From: a virus
Taxonomy: Duplodnaviria; Caudoviricetes
Length of the DNA stretch: 64,000 nucleotides
Direction: 5' to 3' (one strand)
Virus record (IMG/VR): IMGVR_UViG_3300025018_000001
Shown here one piece after another: positions 1 to 56,994 of this stretch (position 1 is the first letter of the stretch; every line of letters begins with the position of its first letter). The notes beneath the pieces are model-generated. The model did no database searches. It saw nothing but the letters and a program-made list of their open reading frames with translations, and was not told the origin of the DNA. The translations under genes and the position numbers were made by a program.

Positions 1-3000
1 GGCTAGTGGTAACTAAGTCCCTAGGGCTATTCTTAAATGAGAAACCTGGACCGTTGGCCCTAGCGAACTCTTGCGCCCGGCGAATCTTGTCAACCGAGCC
101 ATCGGACATAGTAAATCCGCCGTCAGCGTGTCCACTTAAAGTTCTGTCATACTTATCATAAATATTATCTTCATCTTCTGAGTTTGCATAAAGTAATGCA
201 CCACCAGCTGTACCAACCGTAGCAGTAGCTAAAGCACTATATAACCCTGGACTGTTTGTTTTAAAATCATTATAAGCAGAAGAAGTATCTGTAGCTGCTT
301 TTTTTACAAAAGATGAAGTACCTTGAGCACCTTTAGTTAACTTTTTAGCTTTTAATAACTTAGCCAAGCCAGAGACACCAGCAATAGTAGCAGTGGCGCC
401 AGTACCCAAACCTATACCAGCTAAATTTAATAAACCTTTAACGCCGGTGGATATAAAACCACCATTAGCATAAGATCCTTCCTCGGTATTTTTACGCCGT
501 TGTCCTTCCAATATAAGTGCACTAAGACCAACAGTACCTAATGCAGATGCTTCAGCTTTACCTGCCTTATTACCTAATACCATACGTCCTAACTCAGCAG
601 GGATATCAGCTATACCACTAAGCATAGGTTTACCATATTCTAGAACTTTACCACCCATACCATAAGCAGCATCGTCATCGCCTCCAAACATAGAATATGC
701 TCCTAAAATACCTGCTGCACCTGCGGCCAAAGTACCATATCTTGAGTTAGATAGTTTAGAAAAACGATCTTGTAGAGCTAATTTTTTATCCCGTATATCA
801 TCTAAAGTAGGTGCTTTAGTAGTTAATAAATCTTTACCCATCAAAGCACCATCAATCATAAAACTTGCTGCTGTACCTACAACAGGTATATTACTGGCTA
901 GGCCAGAGGCCACTTCTAGTCCAGCACCTAGATAATCACCCGTGGCTGCGCGCTCAGCAGCAAAACCAGCTGCTGCCACTGTACCAACACCAGGTATTTT
1001 CTTTAAGCCTATTTTACTAGCTAGTTTAGCAGAATACTTACTTGTTGTACCACTTATAGCAGAGGTTATACCATTTGAAAAATTAGCGGTACCACTCCTT
1101 AAAGCGTCCAATATAGGTTTAAGTTTTCTACCTTGTTTTGCAGTTAATACTTCTTCCCCAGCAGTAAGAAGAGCTGGTTGTTTATCACCAAAACCTGGGG
1201 TTAACTGTTTAACTGTACCTCCTGTAGCAAACTTCTGTATAAATCCTCCGTGAGCATTACCCTCAGCATTACCATTTACAGCCTCTGTATTTTTTGATAA
1301 AGCCTCCACTAAAGCATCTATAGCCCCTAAAGTTTTTGTAGACGCGTATTCAGCTGTCTTAGAAAGTGTATCAACAGTTGAACCAGTTTTTTCTTTAATA
1401 TCTCCGTAAACATCTCCAGTTTTAGACTTAGTACCTTCGTAAATCTTAGACATTTCTTCTTTAAGATTAACTTCTTCTCCTCTAGCCATTTTTTCTGTAG
1501 CAGACCTCACAGCATCCTGACCAGATGTTTTAATATATTCTTTTAAATCAGCAAATTTATCTTTTAAATCCTGAGCGCTTTGATTTACAGAGTCCTTTGT
1601 ATTACTACGTAGATCTGCATTAGGATTTTCGACTTTACGTTTGAACTCTTTAGCTTTCCATTCAGCATCAAACTTAACATCATCTTTTGTTTTTGTAAAT
1701 GAGTCAGATGCTGCACTATACTTAGCATCCCTATCGGATGAAGTTTTGTTAGGTGTAACTTTCAGGTCAAGAGTCTCTTCTGCAAACTGTTTCATAAACC
1801 CTTCAGAAGCATCCTTGAATCTACTTGTGGCAGCACCTTTCTTTAGTGTACTAAAAATACCGTCATCTTTCATTGCGGCGGCAAATATAGCAACCTCTTT
1901 GCCAAACTCCTTAACCATTTGTGGTAAATCATCACCAGTCATGCCTTGATTCATTTTGGCTGCGCCATAAACACCAAGGGCGGCGCCACCAGCACCTAAT
2001 CTTTTAATGTTATCTTCAGACATACCCATATTACGTGCCAACATCATGCCACCAGAGGCCCCACCAGCAGCATAACGCATAGTACCATACATCCTAGCCT
2101 TCTTAGCTTCCTCATCGCGTGAAGAGGTCAAAGAAGCCATTTGTGGGGCATAGTCAATAAACCCTACTTCATCTTCTCTTTTCTTTAAATCAGCTATTTG
2201 TTTGTCGTAAGCTTCAACTTTTTTATTAGAGAAGTTACTATTAAACGCCTGATAGATACCAAAACCAGCAGTAGCACCTGCTATGTTTTTAGAATTAAAG
2301 ATGCTGCTTTCTTTTGACTTAGCTATATTCTCATCTTGTATTCCCTGTACATTACTTACAGTTTTGTCAAAAGTAGGTGTCCCTTTCTTAGATACTAAAC
2401 CAAACCAAGATGTTTCGTCCTTCATATTAGCTTTCATTTCTGAAGCTAAGGTTTTAAAATCTAAACCTCCGAAAGCACGCTGGATAAGTTCTTCTCCTTT
2501 AAATGCCCCAGAACCAAAGAGACCGCTATCTGCTTTATTAGCTGCTCCAGCAATACCCATACGATCCACTAGTTGCTTAGTTAAGTCGTCTAAAGCTATG
2601 TTAGCTTTAGTAGCTTTTTCAGTATCACCAGAGGACAAAGCGTCATTTCTTATAGAAGCTACTCTATCTAAAGCCTCATTAAGTCTTTCGTTCTTTGTTA
2701 AGTTTGGTGAGATAGGTAAGAAATCTAAAGCATCCATAAAACTAGATTGCATAGCTTCAGAACCCGGTCTATCTGATAGATTAGCTAGTATTTCATCTAA
2801 CTTATCAACAGTCATTGCGGTATTTTCAGCAGTGTTACTAGTGTCTATCTTAAGTTCTGCTAGACCTAGATCACCTGTTTTGGCAACCATTTCAGTGTAT
2901 TTTGAAAAGTCTTTAGCTCCAATACTCGAACCAAAGCCTGAGGATAGATTTTTTATACTTTCCAGAGCAACTTTGGACCTCTCCACAGAGTAAAGCTGTT

Positions 3001-6000
3001 CAGCTGTACCTGACTTCTTGATATCCAATTCTTTTATTCTACTAGCACTCTTAGCAAATTCTGGTGACTTAATTAGTAAACGTTCCTGTGAAGAAAGGTC
3101 TGCTTTATTATATTTACCTAAATCTATATTAGCTAGCGAGGCATCTTTACCTTTAAGTAACCCAGAAGTCTCCACAGCTAAACCAGTTCTAGTTTTTTCA
3201 ACAGCTATATTTTCTTTAACTGCTCTTGTATTGGCCTCCATTGTTTTAGTTAGGTCAGCGAATACAGCTCTATATTGTAAAACTATTTGATTATTTTTAA
3301 GTATATCCTGTAGTTTCCTTATAGAGTCGTATAACCCAGTGGACATCTCAACACTACCAGCGTCTAAGCCGTCTAGATGCATTTTTTCAAGCTGTTCTAA
3401 ACTAGTTTTATATTCATGAAGAGGTTTATTATAATATTTTTCAAAGTCGTCTGACCAACCTTTCTGGAAAGGCGACTCACCAAAACCTTTAGTAGGGTCA
3501 AAGCCTTTATCACCTTGAATGATGGTAGAAGTATTTATATCACTAAAGAAACGCTCACCTAAATTAAAGTCTGTTTTAAAACTTTTCTTAGCAATACCTA
3601 TTAAACCTGCACTAGCACCAGTAACAAAAGTACCTAAGGCTTCGATACGTTCAGACATATCTTGTTCAATAGCTTTGGTGGGTAGTATAGATTCAACTAA
3701 ATCTTGCATGTTACTATCAAATTTACGTTCAGTAACTTTCAGAGTTTTAGTATTAAAGTAAGTAGCTACCCACTCAAAAATACCATCTGATGTTTCTTTA
3801 AGTTTTACAATGGCTTGCTGACCTGCTATATTATATCTATCCGCTGCATCATTAGTAAAAGTAACTAGGTCACCACTTAGTAATTTACCTTCACGTTTAG
3901 CTAACCCCGCAGTCTCTGTATTTGCTACACTTAGTGCCTTAGTAGCACCAAGATTATTTGTATTTGGGAATAAACGCTTCATAACTTCAGCGCCTAATAC
4001 ATCTTCTTTAGTAACATTCCCTTTAATACCTTTTACATTAAACTGAGGTTCTACATCAATCATTAATTGGTACCCTGCCTGTAGCTCATCAGCTCCCATT
4101 ATTCTAGCTATTTCATCTTGACCTAAACCCTCAGTAGGTATGTTGGACAAAGCTCTTTTAAACTCAGAATAAGTGTTATTAAAAGAGTCCTTTACTTTAG
4201 ATAGCTTATCCTGAAGGTTTTTAATATCTCCGTCATATACAGTTGACATAGGTGCGGCATTCTTCTTAGACACTAAGTTATTTAGTTTGCCTGTAAGTAT
4301 TTCTAAACTTTTAGCAGGGGCTATACTAATTTGATTACTAATAAGGTCACCGATTACTGGGATCTCTTTAGTTAAGTCTTTTAATTCACTTTTCCACTTT
4401 TCGGAACCGTCTGTTTTAGTAAGTGCTTCAATATGTTTGGCTGCCACACTAGAGTCTTTGGCGGCAAGATCTCGTATTTTAGACCTTTCAAAAGTACCTA
4501 TAAGTGTTTGGTAGTTATCTGCTGTTCTTAATATAACATTACCTAACTTGTCATAACCAGCGATCATGTTGTAATTTTCTCTAGCAATCTTGTCACTTAA
4601 TTTTAAAGCATCAGACTGTATTGAGGATAATGCATTTAAAGGATTTACATAAGTACCTAAATATTTCTGCTTATCAGCAACCTCAGGGTTTTGACTTCTA
4701 GACACGTCTTTTAATTTTTTCTGTAGATCTCCAGCAGATTTTTGTGTGTCACGTATACTTATTAAGTCTGTTTCATCTTTTGATATTGCCCCAAACATAG
4801 AGTCGGCAAAATCTTGAGAAGACCGTGTTGTATTCATAAACTCTGTTCCCAGAGCTTTTATAGCCGGTGTTAGTAGGCCTAAAGTTAATAACATGGGTGC
4901 TATAGCTTTAACCACACCCGCGTTGTCCTTTGCCCACTCTTTAAAGACATCTCCGCCAGCACCTAACTTCTTGGAAAATTCATCTATGAATATACCACCG
5001 GCAGCTGCACCTAATCCGGCAACTTCCGTAGCTACACCTAGGAAAGATGATGCAACTTTACCTACACCTTTTAAACCACCTGCGGCAAAGGCACCCTTTA
5101 CACCTTCTGATTTAGCGAATTTAGCAGCGGTACCACCGGCTAGGTCTTTGTATGTAACATCTTCACCTTTACCATATTTACCACCGCCAAGTGAAGATAC
5201 AACAGCACTTAACCAGGAGCCACCTCTAACCATAGATTGACCAACACCCTGGCCAGCTCTACCGGTCCCTTGAAGTCCCCCACCTACAGTATCGTTAAAA
5301 GATTTACCCGCAGATACAAGTAAATAAGCTGCCTTACCAATAGCAGATTCAAAGTCTCTAATACTACGCCCTTGTTCTCTACCTGGCTGACCTCCAATTA
5401 ATGTTTTTAATCCTCTAGAAGACGTATCTGTAGAACCTGCACCAATAACTTCAAAGGAAGCTGTTTTAAGTTCGTCTTTTATAGACCCTATTAAATTACC
5501 AACTATTGGTGTGCCACCAGAGAAGAAATTAGATATAGTGTCTAATATTTTAGCACCTTTAGATAAGTATGTAAATAAACCTAAAGCGGCTACGCCAGCA
5601 ATTTTGAAAGATTTAGGTATAGCTGACACAGTTTCTGCCATCGCTTTCATACTTTGTAAACCAAATTTAGCTGCAGGAAAAGCTATCTTACCAAAAGCTA
5701 ATTGTAATTCTAAAAATGCAGCTTTAGTCTGTTCAACTTGTTTCGAATATGTTTGCATTAATTCAGCATTTCTTCTAGAAGCAGAGCCTTGTGAATTCAT
5801 ACTATGCTGAACACCATCTAAAGCTTCTTGCCAATTCTCCATAAGAACAAGTAGAGAGTTATATTGTCTGGTACCACCTATAGCCTGTGCTACTGTCAAT
5901 TTCTGTGCACTATTTAGTTCTTTCCACTTCTCCGCTAAGTCGCCTAGTATTTCAAAACCCCCGCGTAATTCACCTTCACCAGTTACCGTTGCTACGTTTA

Positions 6001-9000
6001 ATTTAGCTAGCTCATTAGGGCCTTTCTCAGAAGACAGTCTTCTCATTATAAATCTTAATGACGTACCAACCTCTTTACCGGACTGTCGGGTAACAGACCC
6101 TATTGAGGCCACAATACCGTTCAATTGGTCAAAAGTTATACCAGCAGTACTAGCAGCAGCAGCCGACTTTTTAATAGCTTCAGCCATATCACCAGCAGTA
6201 ATAGCATGTTTAGATTCAACCTCAGACCATGAATCCAAGAACCGCATAGACCTATCACCCTCTGTCCTAAATATCTTCATGGCAGCTGTTAAAGCTTCAG
6301 TAGCATCTTTAGCTTTTAGAGTTGTAACGTTACTTGCTAGCATAGATGTTTGTGTTCTATCTATTACTTCAGCTTGTGATAGACCCTGCTGTGCGTAAAC
6401 AACCATAGCGTCTAAAACACCTGTTGTAGGTGTACCATATTGCTTGGCCATTCCAACAGCTGAGCTTTGTAGACCCTCAAAATCAGTACCTTTGGAGGGC
6501 ATAACCATTTTTAACTTAGCCATTCCAACTTCAACTTCAGCTACGGTTTCTACGGCTTCTTTGAGCTTATCTACACCACCATAAATTAGAGAAGATGCTG
6601 CACCCCATTTTATGGCACGTTCAATGGCACCTAAGAAACCACGATTAGCTCCCGCTAAAGAGGCAGCCATATCTTCCTGCTTGGCAGTGAATATACCTAC
6701 TGTTTTTCCTGCACTATCAACAGATTCATTAAGTTTATGGAATAGTACGCGTTGGTTTTCTATAGGTTTTCCTGAGTCATCAAATACTTTTGCATCGTAG
6801 GAGTATCTTTCACCAATTTTAGCACCACCCTCAGCACTACCTTTACCATAATATTCACGTAGTTTAGAAATGTTTCTCTTATGTAAATTCTGCTGCATTT
6901 CTGGGTCAGCCCATTTAGGTACTTGTACTACACCTGTCTCACCCCAAACACCTGGGCCTCCAGACTGTGTAGCTCTATCCATACTAACTTTAGATAGCTT
7001 ATTTTCAGCATCTTTAAGTAGTTTTATTGTATTTTCTAAGTTTTTACTTTCAACAGATAAAGGACTATCAGAAACATTAAACTGTTTAAATAACTCTAAG
7101 GCACTGCGTAAACGAGTTATTCTCTCTGAGGCTGCCTCAAAATTCCAAGCCTCGGCTATTTCTGGTCCAAGTCTTTCCAAGAGTTTACCGTTAGCCATTA
7201 ATGCTAATGTTTCATCATTCATCTCTGTAAGATCTTTGATAGCATTTCTTGCCTTATCTGTGGGGGCGGTAATGTTGCCTCTATTTTTACCAGAAAGATC
7301 ACCAGTTATGTCATCAAAAACCTTTTTAAGTAATTCACTATCCGGGTCGGTAGTATCACCTAAATCTCTATTAGACTTCCGTTGTATGTCAACAGGTGAT
7401 TGGTAAACCCCAGCAGCTTTAGCTATATCAGGGAAAGCCCAAACTTTATTAGCAGTGTATATGTCGCTTCTCTTACCAGTATCTGCAATTATTTTCTGCT
7501 GTACGGCGTTGACGGCTGATTCAAAGTTATTGTATGCTTTCCCTTCTTCATTACCACCCATACCCATGACGCTCGTATACATATTCTCAGCGTCATCTGC
7601 CTTTTTAAGTAGGTATTCAATCTCAGCATCTTTATATAAACGCCATGCTGTAGCAATCTCCTCACCAGACATTCCTTGGTTTGGATCTTGTCTATTTAAG
7701 ATTCCTGCATTTTTAGTTAAGTCTAAGAAATCTGAAGTATGTATACCGCCCTGCTTTTTGGCGTTATTAATATAATCCTGTGCTTCCTTAGTTAATTTAT
7801 TTGCTTCATTATCAAAATCCATACCTCTAGCTTTATATAGAGATTTAGATGCATCTCGTAATAAGCGTAGATTAGCTAATTCAGCTACAGGCCCATTACC
7901 CTCATAGGGTTGCATACTCTGCGCTCTACCTGCGGCAGATTTACGTTGTTCCTCAGTTGTTTTGAACTTATCTATTTTTTGGTTTATACCACCAATTCCA
8001 GAATCTTCATCTTTGAATACTCCGCCAGAAATACCTGAAGCACTACTATTTATATTAGATGACGATACTAACTGACCAAGTAATTTAACAGAGAAAACTA
8101 AACTATCATTCAAACCTGCTATGAATACAGGTATGGCTCCACCCCCAGTTGCTGGTAAAGTAGGTCCTCCTGTACCTGGGCCACCACTTGATGGTATATT
8201 TGGTGGTACATCTCCGCCGCTAAATCCTGGATGAGGAGGCTCTTCTCCTCTACTACCTGCATAACTAGAGGTTTCATACTGTGGTGGTATAGTAGTAATA
8301 ATAGAAGTAGTAGACTCTGCACTCTTAGGTGCACCCATAGAAGCTCTTTTTACTTCTTCTTTATCTTCATTTAAACTTAAAGATATGTTTCTACCTGCTT
8401 CAGGTAGTATATCTTTCCTAGTACCGGAAACTTCAGATATTCTATCTAGTCTAGCGATAAGTATTTCCAAATCACCCAGACGTGCATTTGCTTTAGATAT
8501 TTTATTTATATCTTTTTCCTTAGCGTCATCTGGTATATCAGCTAACTTAGCTACATATTCAGGAGATGTAAGTATACTAGCTTGTTTTCTATCACTCATA
8601 GGTGCTAGACCTAAAGTATTCTCCATAGAGCTAATTAACTCTTTTATTGGTCCCATAGAGACTTTACCAGAAGTAAAGTCTTCTCTATTACCACCTATAA
8701 GTTGTTTTGCTTGTATGTAGTCTGCTTGGTTAACACCTTCCTTACCTAAGGATTCAAAAGTTTTTACTAGCTCAGCATATGCACCGCTACTTCTAAATGT
8801 CTTAGCTACGGAGTCCATACCTGTTTTAAAGTCTACATCAAACTTATCATCAACCGAATAACCACCAGTTCTAAACTTGTACATTGGGTCATTAACATCA
8901 GTAACCATTCTTGAGACGTCAATACCTCTAGGTGGTGCACCATCTTTTGATTCATAACGTTTACTTAAAATTTTAAATGCTACTTCAGCACTTATAGGTT

Positions 9001-12000
9001 TTTCGCTATTTGCTTGTATACCTTTAACAGCTAATTGTTCTATTGTGCCTTGTAAATCACGTAGAAATCCCTCAAAACCTAGTTTATTAACTAAGGCGTC
9101 TGTAAGGTCAGACCTACTCATATTAGTAGTATCACCTAAAGGTATACCTGTAGATGCTGCTTGGTCTTTTAATTCCTGAGTAGAAAATTTACCAAAAGTA
9201 TTACGTAGAGAGTCTTCATTTATGGACTTAAACTTCTTTAAATCATCATAGCTTTTATTTTTTTCTAATTTACCAAGTAAACCTTCAAGACCTGCCTTAC
9301 CTGTTGTAACACCTTTAACCAATTCACCAGCTATAGGTCTTTCTCCAGCATGTTTTACATCCATACCTTTCTGAATAGCAAATCTAAAAAACTCATTAAG
9401 TTGTGTATTACGTTCTCTATTGACAAAATTACTATCTATCTTGCCTGACTTGGTTTTACTAGATAAGCCTATTTCTCCAGTACCATCACCAAAGCCTCTT
9501 TTACTTTCATAAGCCCGCATAAGCCTTGTCATGCTTTCAGTATCTGTACCAGTGTTTATCTTAAATAACTGTGCATTTACAGCGGTATCTAACTTCATAT
9601 TAGACAATTCTTCTTTTAAGTAGCCTTCAATAAATGATTTGATTTTTATATCTTTTATCTTATTAAGCTCAGCTACAGCTGCTTCAGAGGCTTCACCTAA
9701 ATCATCTATACCTTTTATAGACTTGTCATCAAACTTAGCCCCTACTTTCTCGTAGATAGCCCGCATAACTCTACTAACAGATTCGCCGCCTGAAGTCATA
9801 TTTAGGTCTTGCTCTTTACTTGCAAGTATACCTACTTTTTCTTTAGGTGATAAGTAAGATAAATCTTCAGTAGTAAAAGGTTTATCAAGGAACGAATACC
9901 CTTTAGAACTATCAAACTTTTTACTAAATGCCTGGGACATATAAGATAGTGGTAAGTCACCTTGTGATGGCTGTTTAGCATCATAAGAATAGTAGTCACC
10001 AAATTTACCAGCTGTCGAATCTATATCTTTAGTAAGCATCTGGAAATGTTTGTAGATGTCATTTCTAGCCTCAGATGTTTTGGCAGTATGAAGTTCAATC
10101 TGGTCACCATCATAATCCAATTTTTGGGCATGAGCTACATATTTAGGTAAAACAGCGGATATAGCGCTATTTAGTTTATCTATAGTACCTGTTAAAGCAT
10201 TAGCTTGTGTATCATCCCCAACAGTACGTGCAGCCTCTCTTTCTTTAGATAAGCTTTTAACTTTATCTTTTATAGAATTATAGACGTCTTCAAAAGCCCC
10301 CATATCCATTTCTGGTGTACCTGGAACCATTAAAGCGTCATCACCTATACCACCAGCAGTTTGTACAAGCTTAGCTTTGTAAGGCTTCAGAGAAGATGTA
10401 CCAGTGAATGGGAAACGCACACTCTCAACAAAGGGGCTTAACTCAGTATCTATATATTTCTTTATATCGTCAGCACGTTCCTTTGGTTGTATCTTACTGG
10501 CAGTTTTTTCCAAAGCACTTGAATATTCTAAAAGATCTTTCAATGTACCTTGAAAATTTTTATCTTCATCTTTATTTAATACAGTACCTTTATCTTTATC
10601 GTATCTCTTAGTGAAGTTAACCTTAAGTTTTTCAGCCAACTTACTGGATACACCCAGTTCATGTTGTTTAAGGACAGGCATACCAATATCTTTGTATTTA
10701 GATACATTTTGTGCGTGTTCTTCGGTAAGTTTCTCTATAGTAGATATTTCTTGTCCTAAGTCTAAACCTTCTATACCTTTTAGTGTTTGAGAAAAAGCAG
10801 TTAGTTCTTCTGTCTTATCCACAGTAGCGTTAGTAGCTTTAGCTAAAACAGATGGTATGTTTCTAGTGAAAAAAGTTCTGGCTACCGACCCTTTTTTACC
10901 TACAAGATTTTTACGTAAAGTATCTTGATAAGACTGTTTTGATCTATCAAGGTCTTCTTGACGTTTAGTTACCTGATTATTATACTTCTCCTCAGAGTTA
11001 GCACCTCTACCATAACTAAATATACTGTCTTTGTTGCCTAAAGCATTAGAGACACCTGTCATAACATCTAACCTAGTAGAAGTATCAGTAGCTTTAGCTA
11101 GAACACTTGTATCAGCAACGTTAGGATTACCTGTACCAATCAGCATATTCTTCATAGCTGCTAAAGCAGTAGGAGAATTAAAACCCTCTTTTGTACCTAA
11201 ATGCTTAACAAAGTCAGACTCACTACCTTTCTGATTGTCAAACTTTCCACTAAGATTATGTTTACTGTTATAGAAGTTTTGTACACCTGTACTTAAGGAA
11301 CCTTCTTCTTTAGATAATTTACCCTGGTCATCCAATTTAACAAGAAGCTGCATAAGTTCTTGTTTAACTTTATTAACTTTAGCAACCGCCTCCTCTGTGT
11401 TTGATTGCTCAAGTCCAGTGGATCTACCTCGGTCATCCTTTGCAAATAGTGAAGACATTGCATTTGCAGCAGTGCTACCAAAAGCGCCCGACATACCAGT
11501 AACGTCAGTATCTAATAACATGCTAGTGTCTTTATTATAGAAAGCCTGTAATGATCTAGACTTGTCAATAACATCTTGAAGTTTACTACCTGTCTTTTTT
11601 ATACCATAAGCGCCCGCTTGCATTGGGTCAGCATAAGATGTTCTAGATATAGACCTTGGAATATATAAGTCTTCACCAGGGGCATCTTTACTTGTGGTAG
11701 ATGGTATAGTTGTCTTGTAAGCTCCTGGTAATTTATCAGTATCAAATATAGTGCCAAGGAGTGATCCTGGGTCGCCTTCATTAAAAGTCTTAGTTGCGTC
11801 TTTATTAACAGATTTAAGATCTTTTATATCAATTGACTTGACTGCACCTAATACTTTATTTTTGTACTCCTCATTAGTATTTACTAAGTAAGTAAGTATA
11901 TTATCGTAGTGTTCGGCCTGTTTGTCAGTGAAATTTTCATTCAGACTTTTCATGAAGGCAGAGTCTTCACCAAACGTAGAAGTATACGCAGCATAAGCAG

Positions 12001-15000
12001 GTATATTTAACTTTATACCTTTACTTAGAGACTCTATGGCACCTTTAGACCATTCTTCTGTCTGTGTAGGTTCTTCTACTATAGATAAGAACTTTTCACC
12101 TACTAAACTCTTTCTTCTATTGTTTAGTTCATCAACAACCTCTACGTAGTAGCTGGATTTTTTCTCCAACTCTATCATGGCTTTTATTGCATCTTGTGTA
12201 CTTTTATCTTGAAGTTTTTCTTTAGAAAACATACTAGTTATCTTGCTCTGTAATTCTTCATCAGTCTTACCTGAACCTGAGAAGCCTAGAGCCTTACTAT
12301 ATTTAGAGAAAGAACCACCAGACTTACCAGATATTAAGCTATTTTTCTGGTCATCAATAGTATTCTTAATTACAGTATTACCCTTACTACTTGCAAGGTT
12401 ATTAGCAACCATTTCTAAAGGCTCAGTTTGTAAGCCACGTTTAGCTGCACCATAAGAACTAATACGTACATCAATAGCTTTTGCTGTAGTTTTCTCTCCT
12501 ACATGCATACCTTTTATTTGGTTTATACCTTCAATATTTTGAGCTAAATTTATATCCAACTCTGCGAAAGCTTTTTTAGCTTTATCAAAAGTGGATAAGT
12601 TCTTAATAGCCTCATTCTCTGTAACTAATCCTTTATTTACATCTGTAAATATATCTAATATAAACTTATTACCTGAGTCTTTAAGTTCTTGGGCTAGTAC
12701 GTCAACATCCATACCTATACCAGCACTTATCTTCTCCTTGGTTTTGGTATCCTGCTGTCCTAAAATATCGGAAGATAATTCACCCATAGATTTAGGCATA
12801 AAGGCTACACCTAATCCAGCTTTCTTCTGCTCATCCCCAGCAAGTACCTTTACATTAGAATCTTTATGTGCTGAAATTATGTCGCCCAAAGTTGATGGAC
12901 TGGTTGGAGTTACAGAAACACCTTTAGAGCCATATCTAGTAGTTAATTTTCTACCAAAATGATTTAAAAATAGTTCTGCTAACTTTGCAGACTGCACCTC
13001 AACCGAAGCACCTCTATTTGTAGTGACTTCATTCTTAACGTTAGAGATAAATGCTTTGTCTGGGCGACGTTTATATTTCTCGTCTATTCCCATAACTGAC
13101 ATTATATTACCGGTCACTTCTTCAATATCAGAGTCTTTTATAGGCCCTTCATTTATTGTAGAGGCTTTACCTGCACTAGCTTTAGGACGCACCAGTTTTC
13201 TAACAGCTGTAGTAGCAGCATCTGCTAACTTTCCAGATACTAAGATTTGATCTTCAAACGTACCAGCTGTATGTCGCAACTCCGCAAGAACGTTATAACC
13301 TATACCTGATTTACCAAACCTTCCTGCCTGAATTACTTTGTCTTCAGACTCGGATCGTAACTTAGGGAACTCTGAGGAAATGCCCTGCTCTTTACCAAAT
13401 AAGCCCGTGTCAAAGCCCTTGGCTGAAGATATACCTGAAATATTTCTTCCTGTTTGTTGATATTCTAAAGAGAACGGTGCTATCTCTCTTAGATTACCTG
13501 TATACATGGGTACTGTTCTACCAGGTCTATTCATAGCATCTGGAGTTGTTTCTAAATTACTTGCAGGGGACTCTGGTAAACCTAAGCTAGTTAGTTGTTT
13601 ATTAGTACCTACATTTAATAAAGCCTGTCTATGTGCAACCTCTGGTGTTACTCCTTGTAAAGAAGGTAAGCTACTGGCTTCATAGAAAAGTTCATTAGCC
13701 CTTCTATTAAAATTAGTAATAAAGGCCTTCTTAGCTTCATTATTTGATTTAAAGCCACGTTCTTCAATGTCTACAGATTCAGACAAGCCATACTTTCCTT
13801 CAGGTGTTAGTAGCTTAGATGCAGCACCTGAATCCATTGAGTGTGCCTTGGAGTAATTAAACATAGCTGAAACAGTATCTCCCTGGTGCATACCTCTTCT
13901 TGGAGCGTTCTTCTCAACTATAGGCATCATACCTTCTAAAGAGGATATGGTTTTTTCAAAGTCACCAATAGCCCCAGTGGATGTTGCTATGTTACCTACT
14001 ATCTTCTCTAACTTAGGCCCTGTAGCTCTTTCTATGGCATCATATACATTTGAAAAATTTAATGAGTCTAAAGATTTTATAACTCTGGTAGCGGATAACC
14101 CCATGGCATCCATATTGGCCATAAATTCATCTACAGAGTTAGAAGACTTTAAAGCAGTATCTACTTGCTTAGACAAAGTTACTAACTCATCCTTCGCTTT
14201 AAGTTCCCCGGAAGTACCTCGTGTTATACGTTGTCTTTCAATACTAATTGGTACTATAGCTTTCTTATAAAAAGATGCAGCGTCTTCTTTATTAGCGGGT
14301 ACACCACCCTTAGAAGCTACCCCTTTTAGCAATAATCTAGAAGCCTCCTCATAGGTACTAGTTGTGTCTGGTACGATGTCACGAGGATCAGTGTTCATGT
14401 TAGCACTTCTAGCAGCTCTAGCTAATTGTAAAATCTCCGGTGTTATACCCTCTTTAAAAGACTCTTGCTTATCTTGTGGTACTTTTTGTAGTAAAGCAGT
14501 AGCATTTTTTATATAACCTTCAAAAGCTCTTTCATGACCTGATTTATATTCAGCTAATTGAAGCGTAGACCTTTGACTTCCATGTTGTGTCTCTAAAACA
14601 GTACTGCCTGTGTTGGTTAATTTAGCTGCTGGAATTGCTATAGTACGTTTAACATCTGCAAGAGACTTCTGAATGTCAGAAAATCCTACTGTTTTTGCAA
14701 AGATATCTTTTAGGTCACTATTAGATGCCTTACTAAATGCAGCTGCTATATCCTCTACTGGTGTACTCCCTATATTAGGTATACTTAACTGGTCTAAAAC
14801 GTCCTTACCTATAGCAGTACGTACCTCAGGATTAAGTCCTTGAACTCCTCCAGACTTTACATTGGATTTTAACCAATCAGCTATCTCCAACTTTAAAGAG
14901 CTTGGCTTATGGCCTTTTTCTCGTAGTAAACTAGTAGCTAATTTGTCTGAGTATGTTTTTAATAGTTCTTTAGGTGAACCATCTTGTTTGCCCGTCAAAC

Positions 15001-16954
15001 TACGAAGTTTTTTCATATCAACAACATCCATGGCCCACTCACGGCCACGTAAATTAAATGCTCTGTTATGTGTACTTCCTGAACCTTCGTTTTCAACAAC
15101 TTTCCAGTCAGTATACTGCTTTTTGCCTGGCGTAGGTTTTAAACCTTCTGATACTTGGTTGTATATAGTCTGTTGTAACTTATCCAAAGACATAGATAAT
15201 TTAGACATATTCTCGTATACTTTTAATTCGTACTCATTCTTTACTTTTTCTGGTGCAGCGTAGGCAACATTAGGCTTGATGAACTTCTCACTATATTTTA
15301 CACTTACTGCTTTTTCAGCATTAGATATAGAATACTTATTAGTCGAAGCTTCTTTTTTAAACTTATCAATGGCATCTGCTAGTTTACCTTTATCTAAAGA
15401 AGCCGTATTTTTATCTATCGCTTGTATAAGTTTAGTATTATCTTGCCCAGCACTAACTTTACCAAGATGGGAAATTAGAGTATTGACTTCTTTAACAAGA
15501 TCCTCTATACCTGATGAGTCTTGTAAAGTAGTTGTTCTACGGTCGCTTTTTACAAATTTACTTATGTCTTCATTTGATAAGGATATTTTTAAATCTTGTA
15601 CCTTACCAAGTTTGGCAAAGTCATGTTCAATAGTAAGTACGTCACTTTTTTTAGTACGGTCGTTAGTTATAAAAGAGGATTCTTTTCTATCTAGAATAGC
15701 ATTCATAGCTACACGTGTTGACTCCAACTCAGCAACTACTTTCTCCAGCTTATCTCTACGAGCTTCTACACCTACACGACTTCTTTCTGGTAACTTAGAA
15801 GAAGCATTTCTATCAGGAAGATTCTGTAGCTCTTTTGTTTTATTATATTGCTCCCTACCTAAAGAACCTTTAACATAATCAAAACCACGTACAAGTTTTG
15901 TTAGTTTATCCTGTAAGTCCTGTACTGCTTTAGTGTCTATGTCTAAAGCTATACCACTATTATTTATATCATTAATTTTATTTTGAAGTTGTTTTAAGCG
16001 GTCATAGATAGCAGGTATAGCGTCTTTTTCTAAATCTATACTAAGTGACATAACATCCTGGTCAATTAGTTTGTCCAGTTTATCTTTGGCTTTAGCTGTA
16101 TCTGCCTCAACAGTTATAGTAGTTGTATTATTTTTAGCTAGCTCCTCGATGTCCTTAGAAGCTTGTGCGGTGTCAGCTGTTACTTTTACTACAACACCGT
16201 CAGCAACTAGCTGTGATATTTTATTTATAGTAGTAGTAAACTGTTTGTTAGCTGCAGATAAAACAGAGACTGCACCAATAGATTGGTCGGAATCGATCCT
16301 TGAAATAGGTGCTCTTACAGACTTATAGCTTTCTTTTGCAGAAGTTGCCGTACTAAGTATAGCTTCTAGTAAATCTACCATCTTACTATTATCTGGAGAG
16401 GCCTTACCACGTTCAGCAGCAAACTCTTTGGATAGGTTAGGTATGGCAGTAAGTGCCTTAGCAATAATGGATAATTCTTGTGCTACCTTAGCTATATCAT
16501 TAGTACCTTGTGTAGGTATACTAGAGGATATACTCTTTACAGCGGAAGTAGTTGCGGTACGTTCATTAGAAACTTTGTTAGCTTTAAATAAACTTTGTAA
16601 ACTTTCAGTAAGGACAGATTTTACTGTAGTTGTTATCTCTTTTTGTAGATCTCTCGCACTGGATGAAGTGTCAGAGCTGGCAGCTTTATTGACTACCTCA
16701 ACTATAGCACCTTTTACATCTCTGGCTAACTGTTTCGAAAATGCCTCATTACTTGAGGAATCAGGAAGAGAGTTAGATAATGCTTTTACTATAGCATTAC
16801 TAATAGTAACCTCCATAGACTTCATGGAGCGATTAAGGGAACTTTCTATAGCAGTACTAATACCATTTATGTCGAAAGTATTGCTTTCAGAACCAGTACC
16901 TTTACTATCCGATGTTGCTTGGATTTTGATTATATGCTCGCTTGTTCCAGCCAA
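1..16954 (-). CDS. Giant tape measure protein fused to a two-barrel RNA polymerase (>5,650 aa, 3' end beyond window)
   Basis: TTG start at 16954 after GGAGG RBS (MAGTSEHIIKIQATSDSK...). The frame was open at every segment I translated (1-180, 8.16 kb, 10.1 kb, 10.4 kb, 12.4-13.3 kb, 16.9 kb). Nearly all plus-strand track ORFs in 942-16970 start at positions 0 mod 3, the antisense-shadow register of one frame. Lies directly downstream of tail tube and chaperone-position genes. Confidence 0.9.
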   Translation of the reverse strand, partial: MAGTSEHIIKIQATSDSKGTGSESNTFDINGISTAIESSLNRSMKSMEVTISNAIVKALSNSLPDSSSNEAFSKQLARDVKGAIVEVVNKAASSDTSSSARDLQKEITTTVKSVLTESLQSLFKANKVSNERTATTSAVKSISSSIPTQGTNDIAKVAQELSIIAKALTAIPNLSKEFAAERGKASPDNSKMVDLLEAILSTATSAKESYKSVRAPISRIDSDQSIGAVSVLSAANKQFTTTINKISQLVADGVVVKVTADTAQASKDIEELAKNNTTTITVEADTAKAKDKLDKLIDQDVMSLSIDLEKDAIPAIYDRLKQLQNKINDINNSGIALDIDTKAVQDLQDKLTKLVRGFDYVKGSLGREQYNKTKELQNLPDRNASSKLPERSRVGVEARRDKLEKVVAELESTRVAMNAILDRKESSFITNDRTKKSDVLTIEHDFAKLGKVQDLKISLSNEDISKFVKSDRRTTTLQDSSGIEDLVKEVNTLISHLGKVSAGQDNTKLIQAIDKNTASLDKGKLADAIDKFKKEASTNKYSISNAEKAVSVKYSEKFIKPNVAYAAPEKVKNEYELKVYENMSKLSMSLDKLQQTIYNQVSEGLKPTPGKKQYTDWKVVENEGSGSTHNRAFNLRGREWAMDVVDMKKLRSLTGKQDGSPKELLKTYSDKLATSLLREKGHKPSSLKLEIADWLKSNVKSGGVQGLNPEVRTAIGKDVLDQLSIPNIGSTPVEDIAAAFSKASNSDLKDIFAKTVGFSDIQKSLADVKRTIAIPAAKLTNTGSTVLETQHGSQRSTLQLAEYKSGHERAFEGYIKNATALLQKVPQDKQESFKEGITPEILQLARAARSANMNTDPRDIVPDTTSTYEEASRLLLKGVASKGGVPANKEDAASFYKKAIVPISIERQRITRGTSGELKAKDELVTLSKQVDTALKSSNSVDEFMANMDAMGLSATRVIKSLDSLNFSNVYDAIERATGPKLEKIVGNIATSTGAIGDFEKTISSLEGMMPIVEKNAPRRGMHQGDTVSAMFNYSKAHSMDSGAASKLLTPEGKYGLSESVDIEERGFKSNNEAKKAFITNFNRRANELFYEASSLPSLQGVTPEVAHRQALLNVGTNKQLTSLGLPESPASNLETTPDAMNRPGRTVPMYTGNLREIAPFSLEYQQTGRNISGISSAKGFDTGLFGKEQGISSEFPKLRSESEDKVIQAGRFGKSGIGYNVLAELRHTAGTFEDQILVSGKLADAATTAVRKLVRPKASAGKASTINEGPIKDSDIEEVTGNIMSVMGIDEKYKRRPDKAFISNVKNEVTTNRGASVEVQSAKLAELFLNHFGRKLTTRYGSKGVSVTPTSPSTLGDIISAHKDSNVKVLAGDEQKKAGLGVAFMPKSMGELSSDILGQQDTKTKEKISAGIGMDVDVLAQELKDSGNKFILDIFTDVNKGLVTENEAIKNLSTFDKAKKAFAELDINLAQNIEGINQIKGMHVGEKTTAKAIDVRISSYGAAKRGLQTEPLEMVANNLASSKGNTVIKNTIDDQKNSLISGKSGGSFSKYSKALGFSGSGKTDEELQSKITSMFSKEKLQDKSTQDAIKAMIELEKKSSYYVEVVDELNNRRKSLVGEKFLSIVEEPTQTEEWSKGAIESLSKGIKLNIPAYAAYTSTFGEDSAFMKSLNENFTDKQAEHYDNILTYLVNTNEEYKNKVLGAVKSIDIKDLKSVNKDATKTFNEGDPGSLLGTIFDTDKLPGAYKTTIPSTTSKDAPGEDLYIPRSISRTSYADPMQAGAYGIKKTGSKLQDVIDKSRSLQAFYNKDTSMLLDTDVTGMSGAFGSTAANAMSSLFAKDDRGRSTGLEQSNTEEAVAKVNKVKQELMQLLVKLDDQGKLSKEEGSLSTGVQNFYNSKHNLSGKFDNQKGSESDFVKHLGTKEGFNSPTALAAMKNMLIGTGNPNVADTSVLAKATDTSTRLDVMTGVSNALGNKDSIFSYGRGANSEEKYNNQVTKRQEDLDRSKQSYQDTLRKNLVGKKGSVARTFFTRNIPSVLAKATNATVDKTEELTAFSQTLKGIEGLDLGQEISTIEKLTEEHAQNVSKYKDIGMPVLKQHELGVSSKLAEKLKVNFTKRYDKDKGTVLNKDEDKNFQGTLKDLLEYSSALEKTASKIQPKERADDIKKYIDTELSPFVESVRFPFTGTSSLKPYKAKLVQTAGGIGDDALMVPGTPEMDMGAFEDVYNSIKDKVKSLSKEREAARTVGDDTQANALTGTIDKLNSAISAVLPKYVAHAQKLDYDGDQIELHTAKTSEARNDIYKHFQMLTKDIDSTAGKFGDYYSYDAKQPSQGDLPLSYMSQAFSKKFDSSKGYSFLDKPFTTEDLSYLSPKEKVGILASKEQDLNMTSGGESVSRVMRAIYEKVGAKFDDKSIKGIDDLGEASEAAVAELNKIKDIKIKSFIEGYLKEELSNMKLDTAVNAQLFKINTGTDTESMTRLMRAYESKRGFGDGTGEIGLSSKTKSGKIDSNFVNRERNTQLNEFFRFAIQKGMDVKHAGERPIAGELVKGVTTGKAGLEGLLGKLEKNKSYDDLKKFKSINEDSLRNTFGKFSTQELKDQAASTGIPLGDTTNMSRSDLTDALVNKLGFEGFLRDLQGTIEQLAVKGIQANSEKPISAEVAFKILSKRYESKDGAPPRGIDVSRMVTDVNDPMYKFRTGGYSVDDKFDVDFKTGMDSVAKTFRSSGAYAELVKTFESLGKEGVNQADYIQAKQLIGGNREDFTSGKVSMGPIKELISSMENTLGLAPMSDRKQASILTSPEYVAKLADIPDDAKEKDINKISKANARLGDLEILIARLDRISEVSGTRKDILPEAGRNISLSLNEDKEEVKRASMGAPKSAESTTSIITTIPPQYETSSYAGSRGEEPPHPGFSGGDVPPNIPSSGGPGTGGPTLPATGGGAIPVFIAGLNDSLVFSVKLLGQLVSSSNINSSASGISGGVFKDEDSGIGGINQKIDKFKTTEEQRKSAAGRAQSMQPYEGNGPVAELANLRLLRDASKSLYKARGMDFDNEANKLTKEAQDYINNAKKQGGIHTSDFLDLTKNAGILNRQDPNQGMSGEEIATAWRLYKDAEIEYLLKKADDAENMYTSVMGMGGNEEGKAYNNFESAVNAVQQKIIADTGKRSDIYTANKVWAFPDIAKAAGVYQSPVDIQRKSNRDLGDTTDPDSELLKKVFDDITGDLSGKNRGNITAPTDKARNAIKDLTEMNDETLALMANGKLLERLGPEIAEAWNFEAASERITRLRSALELFKQFNVSDSPLSVESKNLENTIKLLKDAENKLSKVSMDRATQSGGPGVWGETGVVQVPKWADPEMQQNLHKRNISKLREYYGKGSAEGGAKIGERYSYDAKVFDDSGKPIENQRVLFHKLNESVDSAGKTVGIFTAKQEDMAASLAGANRGFLGAIERAIKWGAASSLIYGGVDKLKEAVETVAEVEVGMAKLKMVMPSKGTDFEGLQSSAVGMAKQYGTPTTGVLDAMVVYAQQGLSQAEVIDRTQTSMLASNVTTLKAKDATEALTAAMKIFRTEGDRSMRFLDSWSEVESKHAITAGDMAEAIKKSAAAASTAGITFDQLNGIVASIGSVTRQSGKEVGTSLRFIMRRLSSEKGPNELAKLNVATVTGEGELRGGFEILGDLAEKWKELNSAQKLTVAQAIGGTRQYNSLLVLMENWQEALDGVQHSMNSQGSASRRNAELMQTYSKQVEQTKAAFLELQLAFGKIAFPAAKFGLQSMKAMAETVSAIPKSFKIAGVAALGLFTYLSKGAKILDTISNFFSGGTPIVGNLIGSIKDELKTASFEVIGAGSTDTSSRGLKTLIGGQPGREQGRSIRDFESAIGKAAYLLVSAGKSFNDTVGGGLQGTGRAGQGVGQSMVRGGSWLSAVVSSLGGGKYGKGEDVTYKDLAGGTAAKFAKSEGVKGAFAAGGLKGVGKVASSFLGVATEVAGLGAAAGGIFIDEFSKKLGAGGDVFKEWAKDNAGVVKAIAPMLLTLGLLTPAIKALGTEFMNTTRSSQDFADSMFGAISKDETDLISIRDTQKSAGDLQKKLKDVSRSQNPEVADKQKYLGTYVNPLNALSSIQSDALKLSDKIARENYNMIAGYDKLGNVILRTADNYQTLIGTFERSKIRDLAAKDSSVAAKHIEALTKTDGSEKWKSELKDLTKEIPVIGDLISNQISIAPAKSLEILTGKLNNLVSKKNAAPMSTVYDGDIKNLQDKLSKVKDSFNNTYSEFKRALSNIPTEGLGQDEIARIMGADELQAGYQLMIDVEPQFNVKGIKGNVTKEDVLGAEVMKRLFPNTNNLGATKALSVANTETAGLAKREGKLLSGDLVTFTNDAADRYNIAGQQAIVKLKETSDGIFEWVATYFNTKTLKVTERKFDSNMQDLVESILPTKAIEQDMSERIEALGTFVTGASAGLIGIAKKSFKTDFNLGERFFSDINTSTIIQGDKGFDPTKGFGESPFQKGWSDDFEKYYNKPLHEYKTSLEQLEKMHLDGLDAGSVEMSTGLYDSIRKLQDILKNNQIVLQYRAVFADLTKTMEANTRAVKENIAVEKTRTGLAVETSGLLKGKDASLANIDLGKYNKADLSSQERLLIKSPEFAKSASRIKELDIKKSGTAEQLYSVERSKVALESIKNLSSGFGSSIGAKDFSKYTEMVAKTGDLGLAELKIDTSNTAENTAMTVDKLDEILANLSDRPGSEAMQSSFMDALDFLPISPNLTKNERLNEALDRVASIRNDALSSGDTEKATKANIALDDLTKQLVDRMGIAGAANKADSGLFGSGAFKGEELIQRAFGGLDFKTLASEMKANMKDETSWFGLVSKKGTPTFDKTVSNVQGIQDENIAKSKESSIFNSKNIAGATAGFGIYQAFNSNFSNKKVEAYDKQIADLKKREDEVGFIDYAPQMASLTSSRDEEAKKARMYGTMRYAAGGASGGMMLARNMGMSEDNIKRLGAGGAALGVYGAAKMNQGMTGDDLPQMVKEFGKEVAIFAAAMKDDGIFSTLKKGAATSRFKDASEGFMKQFAEETLDLKVTPNKTSSDRDAKYSAASDSFTKTKDDVKFDAEWKAKEFKRKVENPNADLRSNTKDSVNQSAQDLKDKFADLKEYIKTSGQDAVRSATEKMARGEEVNLKEEMSKIYEGTKSKTGDVYGDIKEKTGSTVDTLSKTAEYASTKTLGAIDALVEALSKNTEAVNGNAEGNAHGGFIQKFATGGTVKQLTPGFGDKQPALLTAGEEVLTAKQGRKLKPILDALRSGTANFSNGITSAISGTTSKYSAKLASKIGLKKIPGVGTVAAAGFAAERAATGDYLGAGLEVASGLASNIPVVGTAASFMIDGALMGKDLLTTKAPTLDDIRDKKLALQDRFSKLSNSRYGTLAAGAAGILGAYSMFGGDDDAAYGMGGKVLEYGKPMLSGIADIPAELGRMVLGNKAGKAEASALGTVGLSALILEGQRRKNTEEGSYANGGFISTGVKGLLNLAGIGLGTGATATIAGVSGLAKLLKAKKLTKGAQGTSSFVKKAATDTSSAYNDFKTNSPGLYSALATATVGTAGGALLYANSEDEDNIYDKYDRTLSGHADGGFTMSDGSVDKIRRAQEFARANGPGFSFKNSPRDLVTTS
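5600..6620 (-). other. TP901-family tape-measure core domain within the giant ORF
   Basis: Translation: WGAASSLIYGGVDKLKEAVETVAEVEVGMAKLKMVM..AKQYG..VLDAMVVYAQQG..LASNVTTL..DATEALTAAM..LDSWSEVESKHA..GDMAEAIKKSAAAASTAGITFDQLNGIVASIGSVTRQSGKEVGTSLRFI..QAIGGTRQYNSLLVLMEN. Typical PhageMin_Tail pattern. Confidence 0.85.
9900..13700 (-). other. RNA polymerase catalytic region (beta-like then beta'-like double-psi beta-barrel) within the giant ORF; boundaries approximate
   Basis: In-frame motifs: GYNVLAELRHTAGTFEDQILVSGKLA (13300-13223), GRKLTTRYGSKGVSV (12955-12911), AIDVRISSYGAAKRGLQTE (12478-12422), VRFPFTGTSSLKP (10420-10382), AQKLDYDGDQIELHTA (DYDGD 10117-10103). Confidence 0.88.
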
Positions 16955-16958
16955 TAGT

Positions 16959-17975
16959 TTACCCTCCTGAGGTTCTTTTCTTAATATCCGTCCTATCTTT
17001 TATTTTCTGTGCTTCTTTAGGCTTATCATATTTAATATCATAGTAAAGTTCATTTGATTGTGTTATAATAACTTCTTCTGAATCAAATGCCGATAAGTTG
17101 GCTTTACCTTTATTTTTTTTATTTTGGTTTCTTAGTATAGAAGATTCATTATTCATCTCCTTATAATAATCATCCATAAATTTATCAAGAGCCTCATCAT
17201 CCTCTATGGTCGCATCCGGCGGCCTATCTGAAGGTAACATAGAGTAAATTTGCTCATAATAATTAGACCAATATATTAAATTTAATTGGTCTGTGGTATA
17301 ATCTACTAAAGGTACCCCAAATAAAGGCTCAGCTATCTTCAAACTAGATGTATACCTAATACGCCATAAATTACTTCTAGCTATAAACCTTATAGTGCTA
17401 CTACTAAAGCCGCGCATAAATTCCATAAAATAAGAAAAAATATCATTTTTATTTTGTGTATCACGATCTTCCAAGAAGTCTTTATGTGACTTCCAATATT
17501 TTACACCCTGTTCAGTGTAAGTACATTCGCTACACAAAAAACCATACATATCTTCTTCAGCTTTATTATCAGCCGACATATATAGTTTTGAATATTTTTT
17601 AGCTAAAATAGCTGATAACTCTGTTTTTATTTCAGAAATGGTTTTTTTTATTCTATCTTGATTAGCTCTAACTTTTAAAGTTTTTGCTAGGAGAACTTCT
17701 TGACCTTCTAACCTAGACTGTAATTTAGCTACCGCACTTTCATCTGCTTTTGAAAAAATACCTCTAGAAAGAATAAGCTCTTCTAAATCCTTCTTAGGTA
17801 AAAGCCCTTCTTTAAGCGCACTATTGTATGAGTTGTCCCATACTAATTTAGATTTAATTTTTAAAAAATTATTAGGGTAGTGTAGATGCAAGAATGCACC
17901 AGCTACACATACCAAACTCTTACCTAAAGCTATTTTACGAATAAGTAAGTCTGTATCTTCATAAGATATTTCCAT
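16959..17975 (-). CDS. Putative tail assembly chaperone / pre-tape-measure protein
   Basis: 338 aa helical ORF immediately upstream of the TMP. Call rests on synteny only. Confidence 0.45.
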   Translation of the reverse strand: MEISYEDTDLLIRKIALGKSLVCVAGAFLHLHYPNNFLKIKSKLVWDNSYNSALKEGLLPKKDLEELILSRGIFSKADESAVAKLQSRLEGQEVLLAKTLKVRANQDRIKKTISEIKTELSAILAKKYSKLYMSADNKAEEDMYGFLCSECTYTEQGVKYWKSHKDFLEDRDTQNKNDIFSYFMEFMRGFSSSTIRFIARSNLWRIRYTSSLKIAEPLFGVPLVDYTTDQLNLIYWSNYYEQIYSMLPSDRPPDATIEDDEALDKFMDDYYKEMNNESSILRNQNKKNKGKANLSAFDSEEVIITQSNELYYDIKYDKPKEAQKIKDRTDIKKRTSGG

Positions 17976-24980: not shown

Positions 24981-26048
24981 TTACGAACGGTCAATAACCC
25001 CGATACCTAACATACGACTATCTAAACAAGCAAAACCTAATTCTGCCCAACCAAAGAAACCCTGCTTCTGTACACGTAGAAGAGTTGGGTCCTCATGAGC
25101 TTCGTACTCTTTTCTAACAGGCATAACCAAAGAATCGTTAGCAGTCATATCGAAACCATAAATCTGAGTCTCACCTAAAGCAGTTACAGTACCATCAGCA
25201 TCTGTAACGTTAGGATTATCAAGGGTGTAAGCGTTATACTTATCGGTACCGTCTGCAAGGAATTTACCGTATGCAGAAGTACTTCCATTAATATTATACA
25301 ATCCAGGAGCACCTAAATGCTGAACTTCATGTAAAGTTACGTTCCAGATACTTCCCATACCAGCAGCTACGAAAACTTCTCTACGGGTAATTGGGTCGAT
25401 GTCTGTGTCTGTCCACTCACGTATATCTGCAGCATCTTCTGGAGATACATACAAATCGGTAAGAGTACGGCCTAAACGTTTAAAACCTACCATCATCTTA
25501 TTTACCAACTCTTTAGAAAGATAACCAACACCAGTGAGGCCAGTACCAATTTCATAAATTGGGGCTGGTCGTGCACCTAAGAGGCCTTTTCCAGAAAAAC
25601 CAGAAGTTGCAGCAGGTACAATTACTCTCCAACCACATTCTTCTTCATAATTTGCTAAATCTTTTGCAACTCTAGCGGCGACTCTTTGAACAACGTCGAT
25701 ACGGGAATCACGTGCATAGGTAATCTTCCAGTCTGCGGAAGCATTGATACTGAAAGTAGGGACATAAACCTCTTCACCGATACCCTCGATGAAGTTCTGA
25801 GCTTGATAACCCAACCCAGGAAGAACCCAGACAGGAATCTCAAAATCCTCAGCAACTGGATAAACTGCTTGTGCACCAGGTGCCAAACGTTCAACAGCAA
25901 AAAGCTGGCGCATAATAGATTCAAGCTCTACTTTTTGTAATATAGGTGTAGTAATAGCGGCTGCGAAAGCCCTATAAGCTGCCATACCTTCTGGAGTCTG
26001 AACTTCAGCGGTAGCGGCAAACAATTTTCTCATTTCATTAATATCCAT
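24981..26048 (-). CDS. Major capsid protein (HK97 fold)
   Basis: 355 aa after scaffold and decoration genes. Capsid-like pattern (PILQKVELESIMRQLF..YARDSRIDVVQRVAARVAKDLANYEE) and a strong terminator. Confidence 0.85.
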   Translation of the reverse strand: MDINEMRKLFAATAEVQTPEGMAAYRAFAAAITTPILQKVELESIMRQLFAVERLAPGAQAVYPVAEDFEIPVWVLPGLGYQAQNFIEGIGEEVYVPTFSINASADWKITYARDSRIDVVQRVAARVAKDLANYEEECGWRVIVPAATSGFSGKGLLGARPAPIYEIGTGLTGVGYLSKELVNKMMVGFKRLGRTLTDLYVSPEDAADIREWTDTDIDPITRREVFVAAGMGSIWNVTLHEVQHLGAPGLYNINGSTSAYGKFLADGTDKYNAYTLDNPNVTDADGTVTALGETQIYGFDMTANDSLVMPVRKEYEAHEDPTLLRVQKQGFFGWAELGFACLDSRMLGIGVIDRS

Positions 26049-44103: not shown

Positions 44104-44146
44104 TGAGCCTCCAAAATAGAAAGGCGCCAATACTTAATTAAAAGTA

Positions 44147-56753: not shown

Positions 56754-56764
56754 GGAGCTTTATC

Positions 56765-56992: not shown

Positions 56993-56994
56993 CA

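Follow-up and report, generated by a model that had tools for sequence, protein, structure and literature searches.

A stretch of 64,000 nucleotides from a virus of the class Caudoviricetes (IMG/VR record IMGVR_UViG_3300025018_000001; the whole stretch is hereafter called the window) was analysed for a giant minus-strand gene, in which a tape measure protein of the tail (TMP) and the motifs of an RNA polymerase (RNAP) share one reading frame. By listing of open reading frames (ORFs) and translation, we detected a stop-free frame of 5,651 codons that starts with TTG and stays open at the window edge, in agreement with a preliminary description of this DNA, which had reported one frame running from TTG 16954 off the window. 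In the JGI and ENA assemblies the frame forms the first three quarters of a protein of 7,498 amino acids (aa), and the translation of the window is identical to aa 1-5,651 of that protein except for the first codon (TTG, printed as L). In one NCBI assembly (GCA_902725485.1; 264,154 bp), the frame changes locally at about aa 5,600 (L001:9698-10120), which splits the TMP into two proteins of 5,619 and 1,872 aa, while the copies in the window, JGI and ENA read through. The order of genes within the late operon is terminase, major head protein, probable tail tube protein, two small ORFs and then the giant gene. Positions of all these features are listed in Table 1.

All five motif blocks quoted in the preliminary description were found in the frame, and their E. 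coli K-12 counterparts in the genome record, FEDS (812-815), GDKMAGRHGNKGV (1063-1075) and VDIVLNPLGVPSRM (1094-1107) of the beta subunit and RAPTLH (425) and NADFDGDQMAVH (458-469) of the beta' subunit, matched those that had been named. The module that carries them lies in the N-terminal third of the protein and joins the C-terminal half of beta to the N-terminal half of beta'. As to the beta'-type barrel, a DxDxD metal loop is preceded by an R-x-P strand; as to the beta-type barrel, two lysines and the E-D pair are supplied. In the alignments of 41 relatives at 30-45% identity, the residues G-R-K..T-R.G.K-G-V, R.S..G..K-R-G, R.P.T-G and D.D-G-D were invariant, as were E-D-Q of FEDQ and, in the GRK..GSKGV loop, R/K and both lysines. 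D[FY]DGD was present in 95 of the 97 family members with a length of 3,000 aa or more, and in about 100 diverged relatives 6,500-8,000 aa long the motifs vary little or not at all. Judged from these alignments, the conservation of motifs is beyond chance, and invariance falls on those residues that catalysis would be expected to require. Two further conserved blocks, LFKIHTG.ETE..YRL and F.IQKGMDVKHAG (aa 2463-2537), are candidates for the bridge helix and trigger loop; the C-terminal limit of the module was provisionally set at the last of the conserved blocks, the FxIQKGMDVKHAG motif.

Comparison with known families by sequence gave a weak link for the fused module. The Pfam family RNA_pol_Rpb1_2 matched the window protein with an E value of 0.08 only; it was matched by 29 of the 41 members (best E 2.9e-4), and every other family by four members at most. 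Neither Pfam nor PHROG gave a match within aa 1-2000 of the window protein, and the search of PDB with the fused module, both as single sequence and as profile, returned no polymerase.

The TMP part of the same frame was readily recognized. A core of the TP901 type, as had been described, was borne out by the domain PF10145 and by PHROG tape measure families that span aa ~3442-3988 (E 1e-80). The frame of the window is continuous between the RNAP motifs and this core, and five IMG/VR records of relatives likewise hold an open frame of 7,488-7,760 aa with no stop inside the match. Within the distal region a weak PHROG match of the 'peptidase' kind was observed at aa ~5184-5376. Beyond the window, at aa ~7270-7400 of the giant protein, roughly twelve leucine-rich-repeat-like units of the type 'IKIEGLxxLxxI' were noted in tandem, and this C-terminal part gave a weak match to the Pfam family LRR_EndoS (E 3e-5).

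The giant protein belongs to a large family. A word-indexed search gave 63 relatives from JGI, ENA, NCBI and Logan assemblies that match the polymerase region, nearly all of 7,000-7,955 aa and nearly all with PF10145 in the same protein. The relatives are homologous to the query across at least aa 1-5100, with a dip of family coverage at aa 2700-3000. A HMMER search with aa 1160-2359 over 1.84 billion representatives detected 111 proteins, nearly all of them giants or fragments of giants, and reached no cellular polymerase. Of the 97 members that reach 3,000 aa or more, 78 exceed 6,500 aa (median 7,483). Altogether the family extends to about 100 clusters at 50% identity, and IMG/VR holds 50 loci on contigs of up to 268 kb. 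The giant protein contains no Cys in 7,498 aa, and the same is true for 75 of the 97 relatives; Cys counts are 1-7 for the other window proteins and neighbouring structural genes and 15 for the standalone paralogue described below.

Table 1. Features of the giant gene, its surroundings and the standalone polymerases (window coordinates, except those of the last line)
Feature	Position	Strand	Remarks
Giant tape measure gene, first 5,651 codons	2..16954	-	Gene runs past window start; full product 7,498 aa
AGGAGG ribosome-binding site	16963..16968	-	8 nt upstream of TTG start
Stop codon of upstream gene	16959-16961	-	4 nt before TTG (coupled start)
N-terminal extension, aa 1-992	13979..16954	-	Conserved in the family; no known family; no counterpart in gp96 of phage P23-45
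RNA polymerase module, aa ~993 to ~2540	9335..13978	-	N-terminal limit from profile homology to standalone polymerase
GYN..FEDQILVS, aa 1219-1240	13235-13300	-	Exact motif position
FEDQ, aa 1233-1236	13247..13258	-	Counterpart of E. coli beta F812-E813-D814-S815; E-D-Q invariant in family
GRKLTTRYGSKGV, aa 1334-1346	12917..12955	-	Counterpart of beta GDKMAGRHGNKGV loop (K1065, K1073); K1336 and K1344 invariant
IDVRISSYGAAKRG, aa 1494-1507	12434..12475	-	Counterpart of beta VDIVLNPLGVPSRM; preceded by a family-specific insertion of ~130 aa
VRFPFTG, aa 2179-2185	10400..10420	-	Corresponds to beta' RAPTLH (R425); invariant R, P, T, G
DYDGDQIELH, aa 2280-2289	10088..10117	-	Metal-binding loop of beta'-type barrel; D2280, D2282, D2284 invariant
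Gly/Pro/Ser-rich linker, aa ~2898-2940	8135..8263	-	Between polymerase and tape measure parts; followed by hydrophobic stretch aa 2941-2959
Tape measure core PF10145 PhageMin_Tail, aa 3503-3694	5873..6448	-	E 8.3e-28; 98.1 bits vs gathering cut-off of 33.2
Hydrophobic membrane-type segments, aa 3971-4036	4847..5044	-	Kyte-Doolittle peaks after core
Distal tape measure region, aa 4037-5651	2..4846	-	Continues to aa 7498 beyond window; repeated GGF/ASGG-type motifs
Probable tail tube protein	19196..20785	-	Language-model lead only: Phage_tube_2-type clusters, score 0.92
Major head protein	24981-26048		Upstream in late operon
Terminase	30500-32206		Upstream in late operon
Standalone fused beta/beta' RNA polymerases, 1,084-1,102 aa	L065:6001-9255, L062:1414-4671, L060:3212-6520		Outside window

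Predicted fold and the standalone paralogue

The preliminary description had expected two adjoining double-psi barrels. The structure of aa 1165-2360 was predicted by AlphaFold (predicted local distance difference test, pLDDT, 78; predicted template modelling score, pTM, 0.57), and the model was compared with 48,161 PDB representatives by a method other than Foldseek. The model contains a beta-like part followed by a beta'-like part with a double-psi barrel, and the top matches were cellular beta and beta' subunits. At lower rank, helical folds matched a helical hairpin that forms an insert of the barrel; these matches were discounted. The model suggests an RNAP core of cellular type that looks intact, and it seems to keep a domain resembling the clamp of beta'. 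A second model, for aa 2140-2760, cuts the barrel; it is all-helical, contains a helix of 50 residues that is a further candidate for the bridge helix or trigger loop, and matched only generic helical hairpins in the fold search. Among viral folds, the polymerase model was best matched by a 'minor tail protein' from an uncultured Siphoviridae, represented in BFVD by its first segment (A0A8S5SD80_1; E 0.002, probability 0.93); judged from this fold match, it may be another polymerase fused to a tail protein.

When the complete genome of a relative (268,764 bp) was scanned with a profile of the DFDGD region, a weak extra match was found in a separate protein of 1,102 aa, which carries WEDQ, NKGV, IDVIV, ERFPCLG and DFDGD in the beta-then-beta' order. 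Homologues of this standalone polymerase were found in two further relatives. The standalone family comprises at least 361 proteins from metagenomes, many with PF00562 and PF00623, and its profile matches bacterial beta in PDB (E 1.3e-4). Its member closest to the phage of the window, P0153 (1,084 aa), is encoded on a contig of 264,359 bp. The phage thus carries the polymerase twice, once fused and once free, in the way that P23-45 carries gp96 and gp64.

Alignment by hhalign of the fused module with the standalone family gave a probability of 98.75% (E 1.5e-16) over 464 columns, and the match reaches N-terminally to aa ~993 of the giant protein (93.4%). By profile comparison, no relative detected for the fused module is closer than the standalone polymerase. 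The standalone enzymes (P0153 and P0152; ~1,085-1,100 aa) share with the fused copy the order of (F/W)EDQ, K-loop, IDV block, RFP and DFDGD, but they are unfused, contain 15-16 Cys, and reach the Pfam beta and beta' models more readily. Near the standalone gene (L065:291-3559 and 11572-12666) we observed COOH-NH2 ligase-type, Peptidase_C26/GATase and GGACT domains and a DEAD/ResIII helicase; these flanking genes may form a module for nucleotide or DNA modification.

Comparison with virion polymerases and interpretation

The precedent invoked in the preliminary description, gp96 of Thermus phage P23-45, does exist (Chaban et al. 2024, PMC10770324). In gp96 (5,002 aa; structures PDB 8H2M and 8H2N), an N-terminal part of ~1,200 aa forms a two-barrel polymerase that is active in vitro, is found in virions within the full-sized protein, and binds and transcribes the pre-early genes; it is clamp-less and flat, and is a paralogue of the non-virion polymerase gp64 (PMC10770324). 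The two giant proteins are alike in having a two-barrel RNAP with a DFDGD-type loop placed in frame upstream of the tape measure on one giant chain without Cys, in the presence of a paralogous standalone polymerase in the same genome, and in the very long tail that is expected. They differ in layout. The polymerase of gp96 starts at aa 1, that of the window protein at aa ~993, after ~990 other residues; the metal loops are at aa 779 and 2280, respectively; the length of the window protein is 7,498 instead of 5,002 aa; the clamp-like beta' region is seemingly kept in the model, in contrast to the clamp-less flat gp96; no Pfam metallopeptidase domain was found in the window protein; and the genome is of ~264 kb from cold groundwater, compared with 84 kb from a thermophile.

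In sequence, the family profile of the fused module did not match gp96: hhalign with gp96 1-1200 gave a probability of 0.3%, no phmmer or profile match was obtained, and neither 8H2M nor 8H2N was returned by the PDB sequence and profile searches. Only the profile of the standalone paralogue touches the gp96 barrel (79%, 76 columns), and the standalone family gave no hhalign match to gp64. Apart from the generic catalytic barrel, these profiles revealed no relationship in sequence to gp96. Together with the top fold matches to cellular subunits, these values agree with the earlier view of a different and more cellular-like lineage. In the fold search, gp96 and phi14:2 gp66 were absent among the 50 matches listed, from which a difference in fold does not follow. 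P0126 and P0127, the most distant of the giant matches, were considered as relatives of gp96 and rejected.

Compared with E. coli rpoB and rpoC, the present enzyme is a single chain, in which the N-terminal lobes of beta and the C-terminal half of beta' are not recognisable; the distance from FED to the K-loop is ~100 aa, as against 251 in E. coli, indicating that there is no full insert of the flap and sandwich-barrel hybrid motif (SBHM) type. The crAss-like (phi14:2 gp66) and N4-like phages likewise hold a polymerase for the first transcripts inside a very large particle protein, but theirs are packaged in the head of short-tailed phages and are not tape measures, and the N4 virion polymerase is T7-like rather than two-barrel. 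Single-chain two-barrel enzymes of the QDE-1 and YonO type are soluble and cytoplasmic and have no sequence link to the present protein, of which the motifs are nearer to the cellular consensus.

By analogy with gp96, we consider that the giant protein is, with a probability of about 0.74, the TMP of a huge uncultured phage, probably with a non-contractile tail, into which a single-chain two-barrel RNAP is built, and that this RNAP is injected and transcribes the first genes. Packaging into the virion, enzyme activity and early transcription are all inferred from that analogy, according to which a very long tail probably serves the phage to inject a polymerase of its own. The giant protein would fill the lumen of the tail and be expelled on infection, its tape measure or hydrophobic part helping to form a channel through the cell envelope. 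The C-terminal end of other siphophage TMPs is reported to be located at the tail tip. With this polarity assumed, the polymerase part would be placed at the head-proximal end, adjoining the incoming DNA, and would leave last; after exit it would regain its fold and transcribe those phage genes that enter first, making the phage independent of the host polymerase until the standalone paralogue is made as the non-virion RNAP (nvRNAP). The lack of Cys along the chain fits storage and passage in an extended or partly unfolded state, outside the cytoplasm and across an oxidising compartment. Scaling from P23-45 (5,002 aa, ~800 nm), the tail would be roughly 1.1-1.2 μm long if the whole chain counts.

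Several observations weigh against this interpretation. No match to the Pfam beta models was obtained for the beta-like part of any of 33 members, and Foldseek gave weak E values (0.1-1), its matches in PDB and BFVD being weak apart from the BFVD entry named above. The lysine loop of beta type was modelled at a pLDDT below 50. Neither the bridge helix nor the trigger loop was identified in the models, the fold search or the hhalign comparison of aa 2140-2760, for which the match to the standalone enzyme was weak past DFDGD (14%). Compared with the standalone enzyme, the fused copy contains ~130, ~320 and ~60 extra aa between the conserved blocks, as large helical insertions. The clamp-like domain is hard to square with passage through the tail tube unless the protein is unfolded. 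Finally, the standalone polymerase was detected in three of the eight relatives' records tested; the other five records are 57-89% complete, and the blanks in them say nothing either way.

Some of these features are what would be expected if the module were a catalytically dead relic, serving as a structural or DNA-end-binding pilot domain that makes no RNA: no bridge helix or trigger loop was recognized, both barrels carry large insertions, and the lysine loop is of low model confidence. In that case, the three Asp, two Lys and E-D pair would hardly stay invariant at 30-35% overall identity. Invariance of catalytic residues among such diverged relatives points to purifying selection on catalysis and not on a scaffold, and we regard the relic as improbable. 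About as improbable, or very slightly less so, is an active module with a role other than gene transcription, namely in priming or starting replication, in RNA-dependent synthesis as by QDE-1, or as a motor that pulls the 264-kb genome from the capsid; in both sequence and fold the module comes nearest to DNA-dependent transcriptases, and pulling by transcription would still be transcription.

The bulk of the folded clamp-bearing module, which looks too large for the lumen of the tube, is better accommodated if the polymerase part is cut off at the Gly/Pro linker and either taken up by another part of the particle, for instance the head, as in N4 and crAss-like phages, or active only in the producing cell. 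The Gly/Pro/Ser-rich linker at aa ~2898-2940 indeed parts the two regions, and family coverage falls at aa 2700-3000. Yet the protein is free of Cys over its whole length, including the polymerase part, suggesting one shared fate outside the cytoplasm, and with ~990 non-polymerase residues at the N-terminus a single cut gives no clean enzyme. Cleavage is therefore unlikely in our estimate, though it stands above the two preceding alternatives; each of the three is less likely than a polymerase injected as part of the TMP. An artefact of assembly or gene calling that joined a polymerase gene to a tape measure gene can be excluded. The split in the NCBI copy (5,619 and 1,872 aa) might be taken in its favour, but this split is near aa 5,600, far downstream and in one assembly, and is not between the polymerase and tape measure parts; in addition, nearly all of the 63 relatives from four sources have both parts in the same protein, and nearly all of the 111 proteins from the search of 1.84 billion representatives are giant or giant fragments.

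To our knowledge, the TMP-fused virion polymerases described so far are all from P23-45 and from Thermus phages closely related to it. The injected TMP-RNAP proposed here would add a second lineage without detectable sequence relationship, that of huge phages from groundwater and other habitats, with a distinct and widespread layout characterized by the internal position of the enzyme, a clamp-like domain and many insertions. The giant proteins are among the largest phage proteins on record, and would imply tails of roughly a micrometre. They raise the questions of how an enzyme of ~170 kDa is stored in and threaded through a tail tube, whether it must be unfolded, as the total lack of Cys suggests, and whether pairs of virion RNAP (vRNAP) and nvRNAP arose repeatedly by duplication. 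The fused and free paralogues are a natural pair for finding the dispensable parts of a two-barrel polymerase. A broader proposal, rather doubtful at present, is that fusion of TMP and RNAP is a recurrent solution of extremely long-tailed phages: a worldwide family of phages of 230-330 kb, with TMPs of ~7,500 aa and predicted tails above 1 μm, would carry an unfolded, Cys-free, clamp-bearing polymerase of cellular type that refolds at the exit of the channel, its transcription helping to draw the genome in, and the fusion would be either of independent origin or older than the split from P23-45.

Genomic surroundings and candidate signals

The public sequencing runs containing this exact DNA are aquifer and cold-spring metagenomes, and none of the runs listed for it is of RNA. 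GenBank phages gave no match by DNA or protein search.

The sequence TAGTGGTMC was found 20 times in the window, as against 1.2 times expected, at 49193-60191 on the plus strand and also at 48694 on the minus strand. Sixteen copies are co-oriented and intergenic within an array of small plus-strand genes, and most copies make up the 3' arm in a conserved hairpin, after which come a T-run and GA. In relatives the enrichment was only modest, and was not detected around the standalone polymerase gene. In P23-45, conserved motifs are present at the promoters and terminators of the vRNAP; TAGTGGTMC could be a start or stop signal of one of the two phage polymerases.

The sign of the GC skew flips at ~50 kb, where the coding strand switches, and the GC content is 41-49% at 50000-62000 of the window compared with 30-40% in the structural module. 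Besides the late genes, the window encodes a PIN-PhoH fusion protein (42826-44130, minus strand) and, within the early-gene array, a DUF488-N3/NADAR fusion protein (57451-58299, plus strand).

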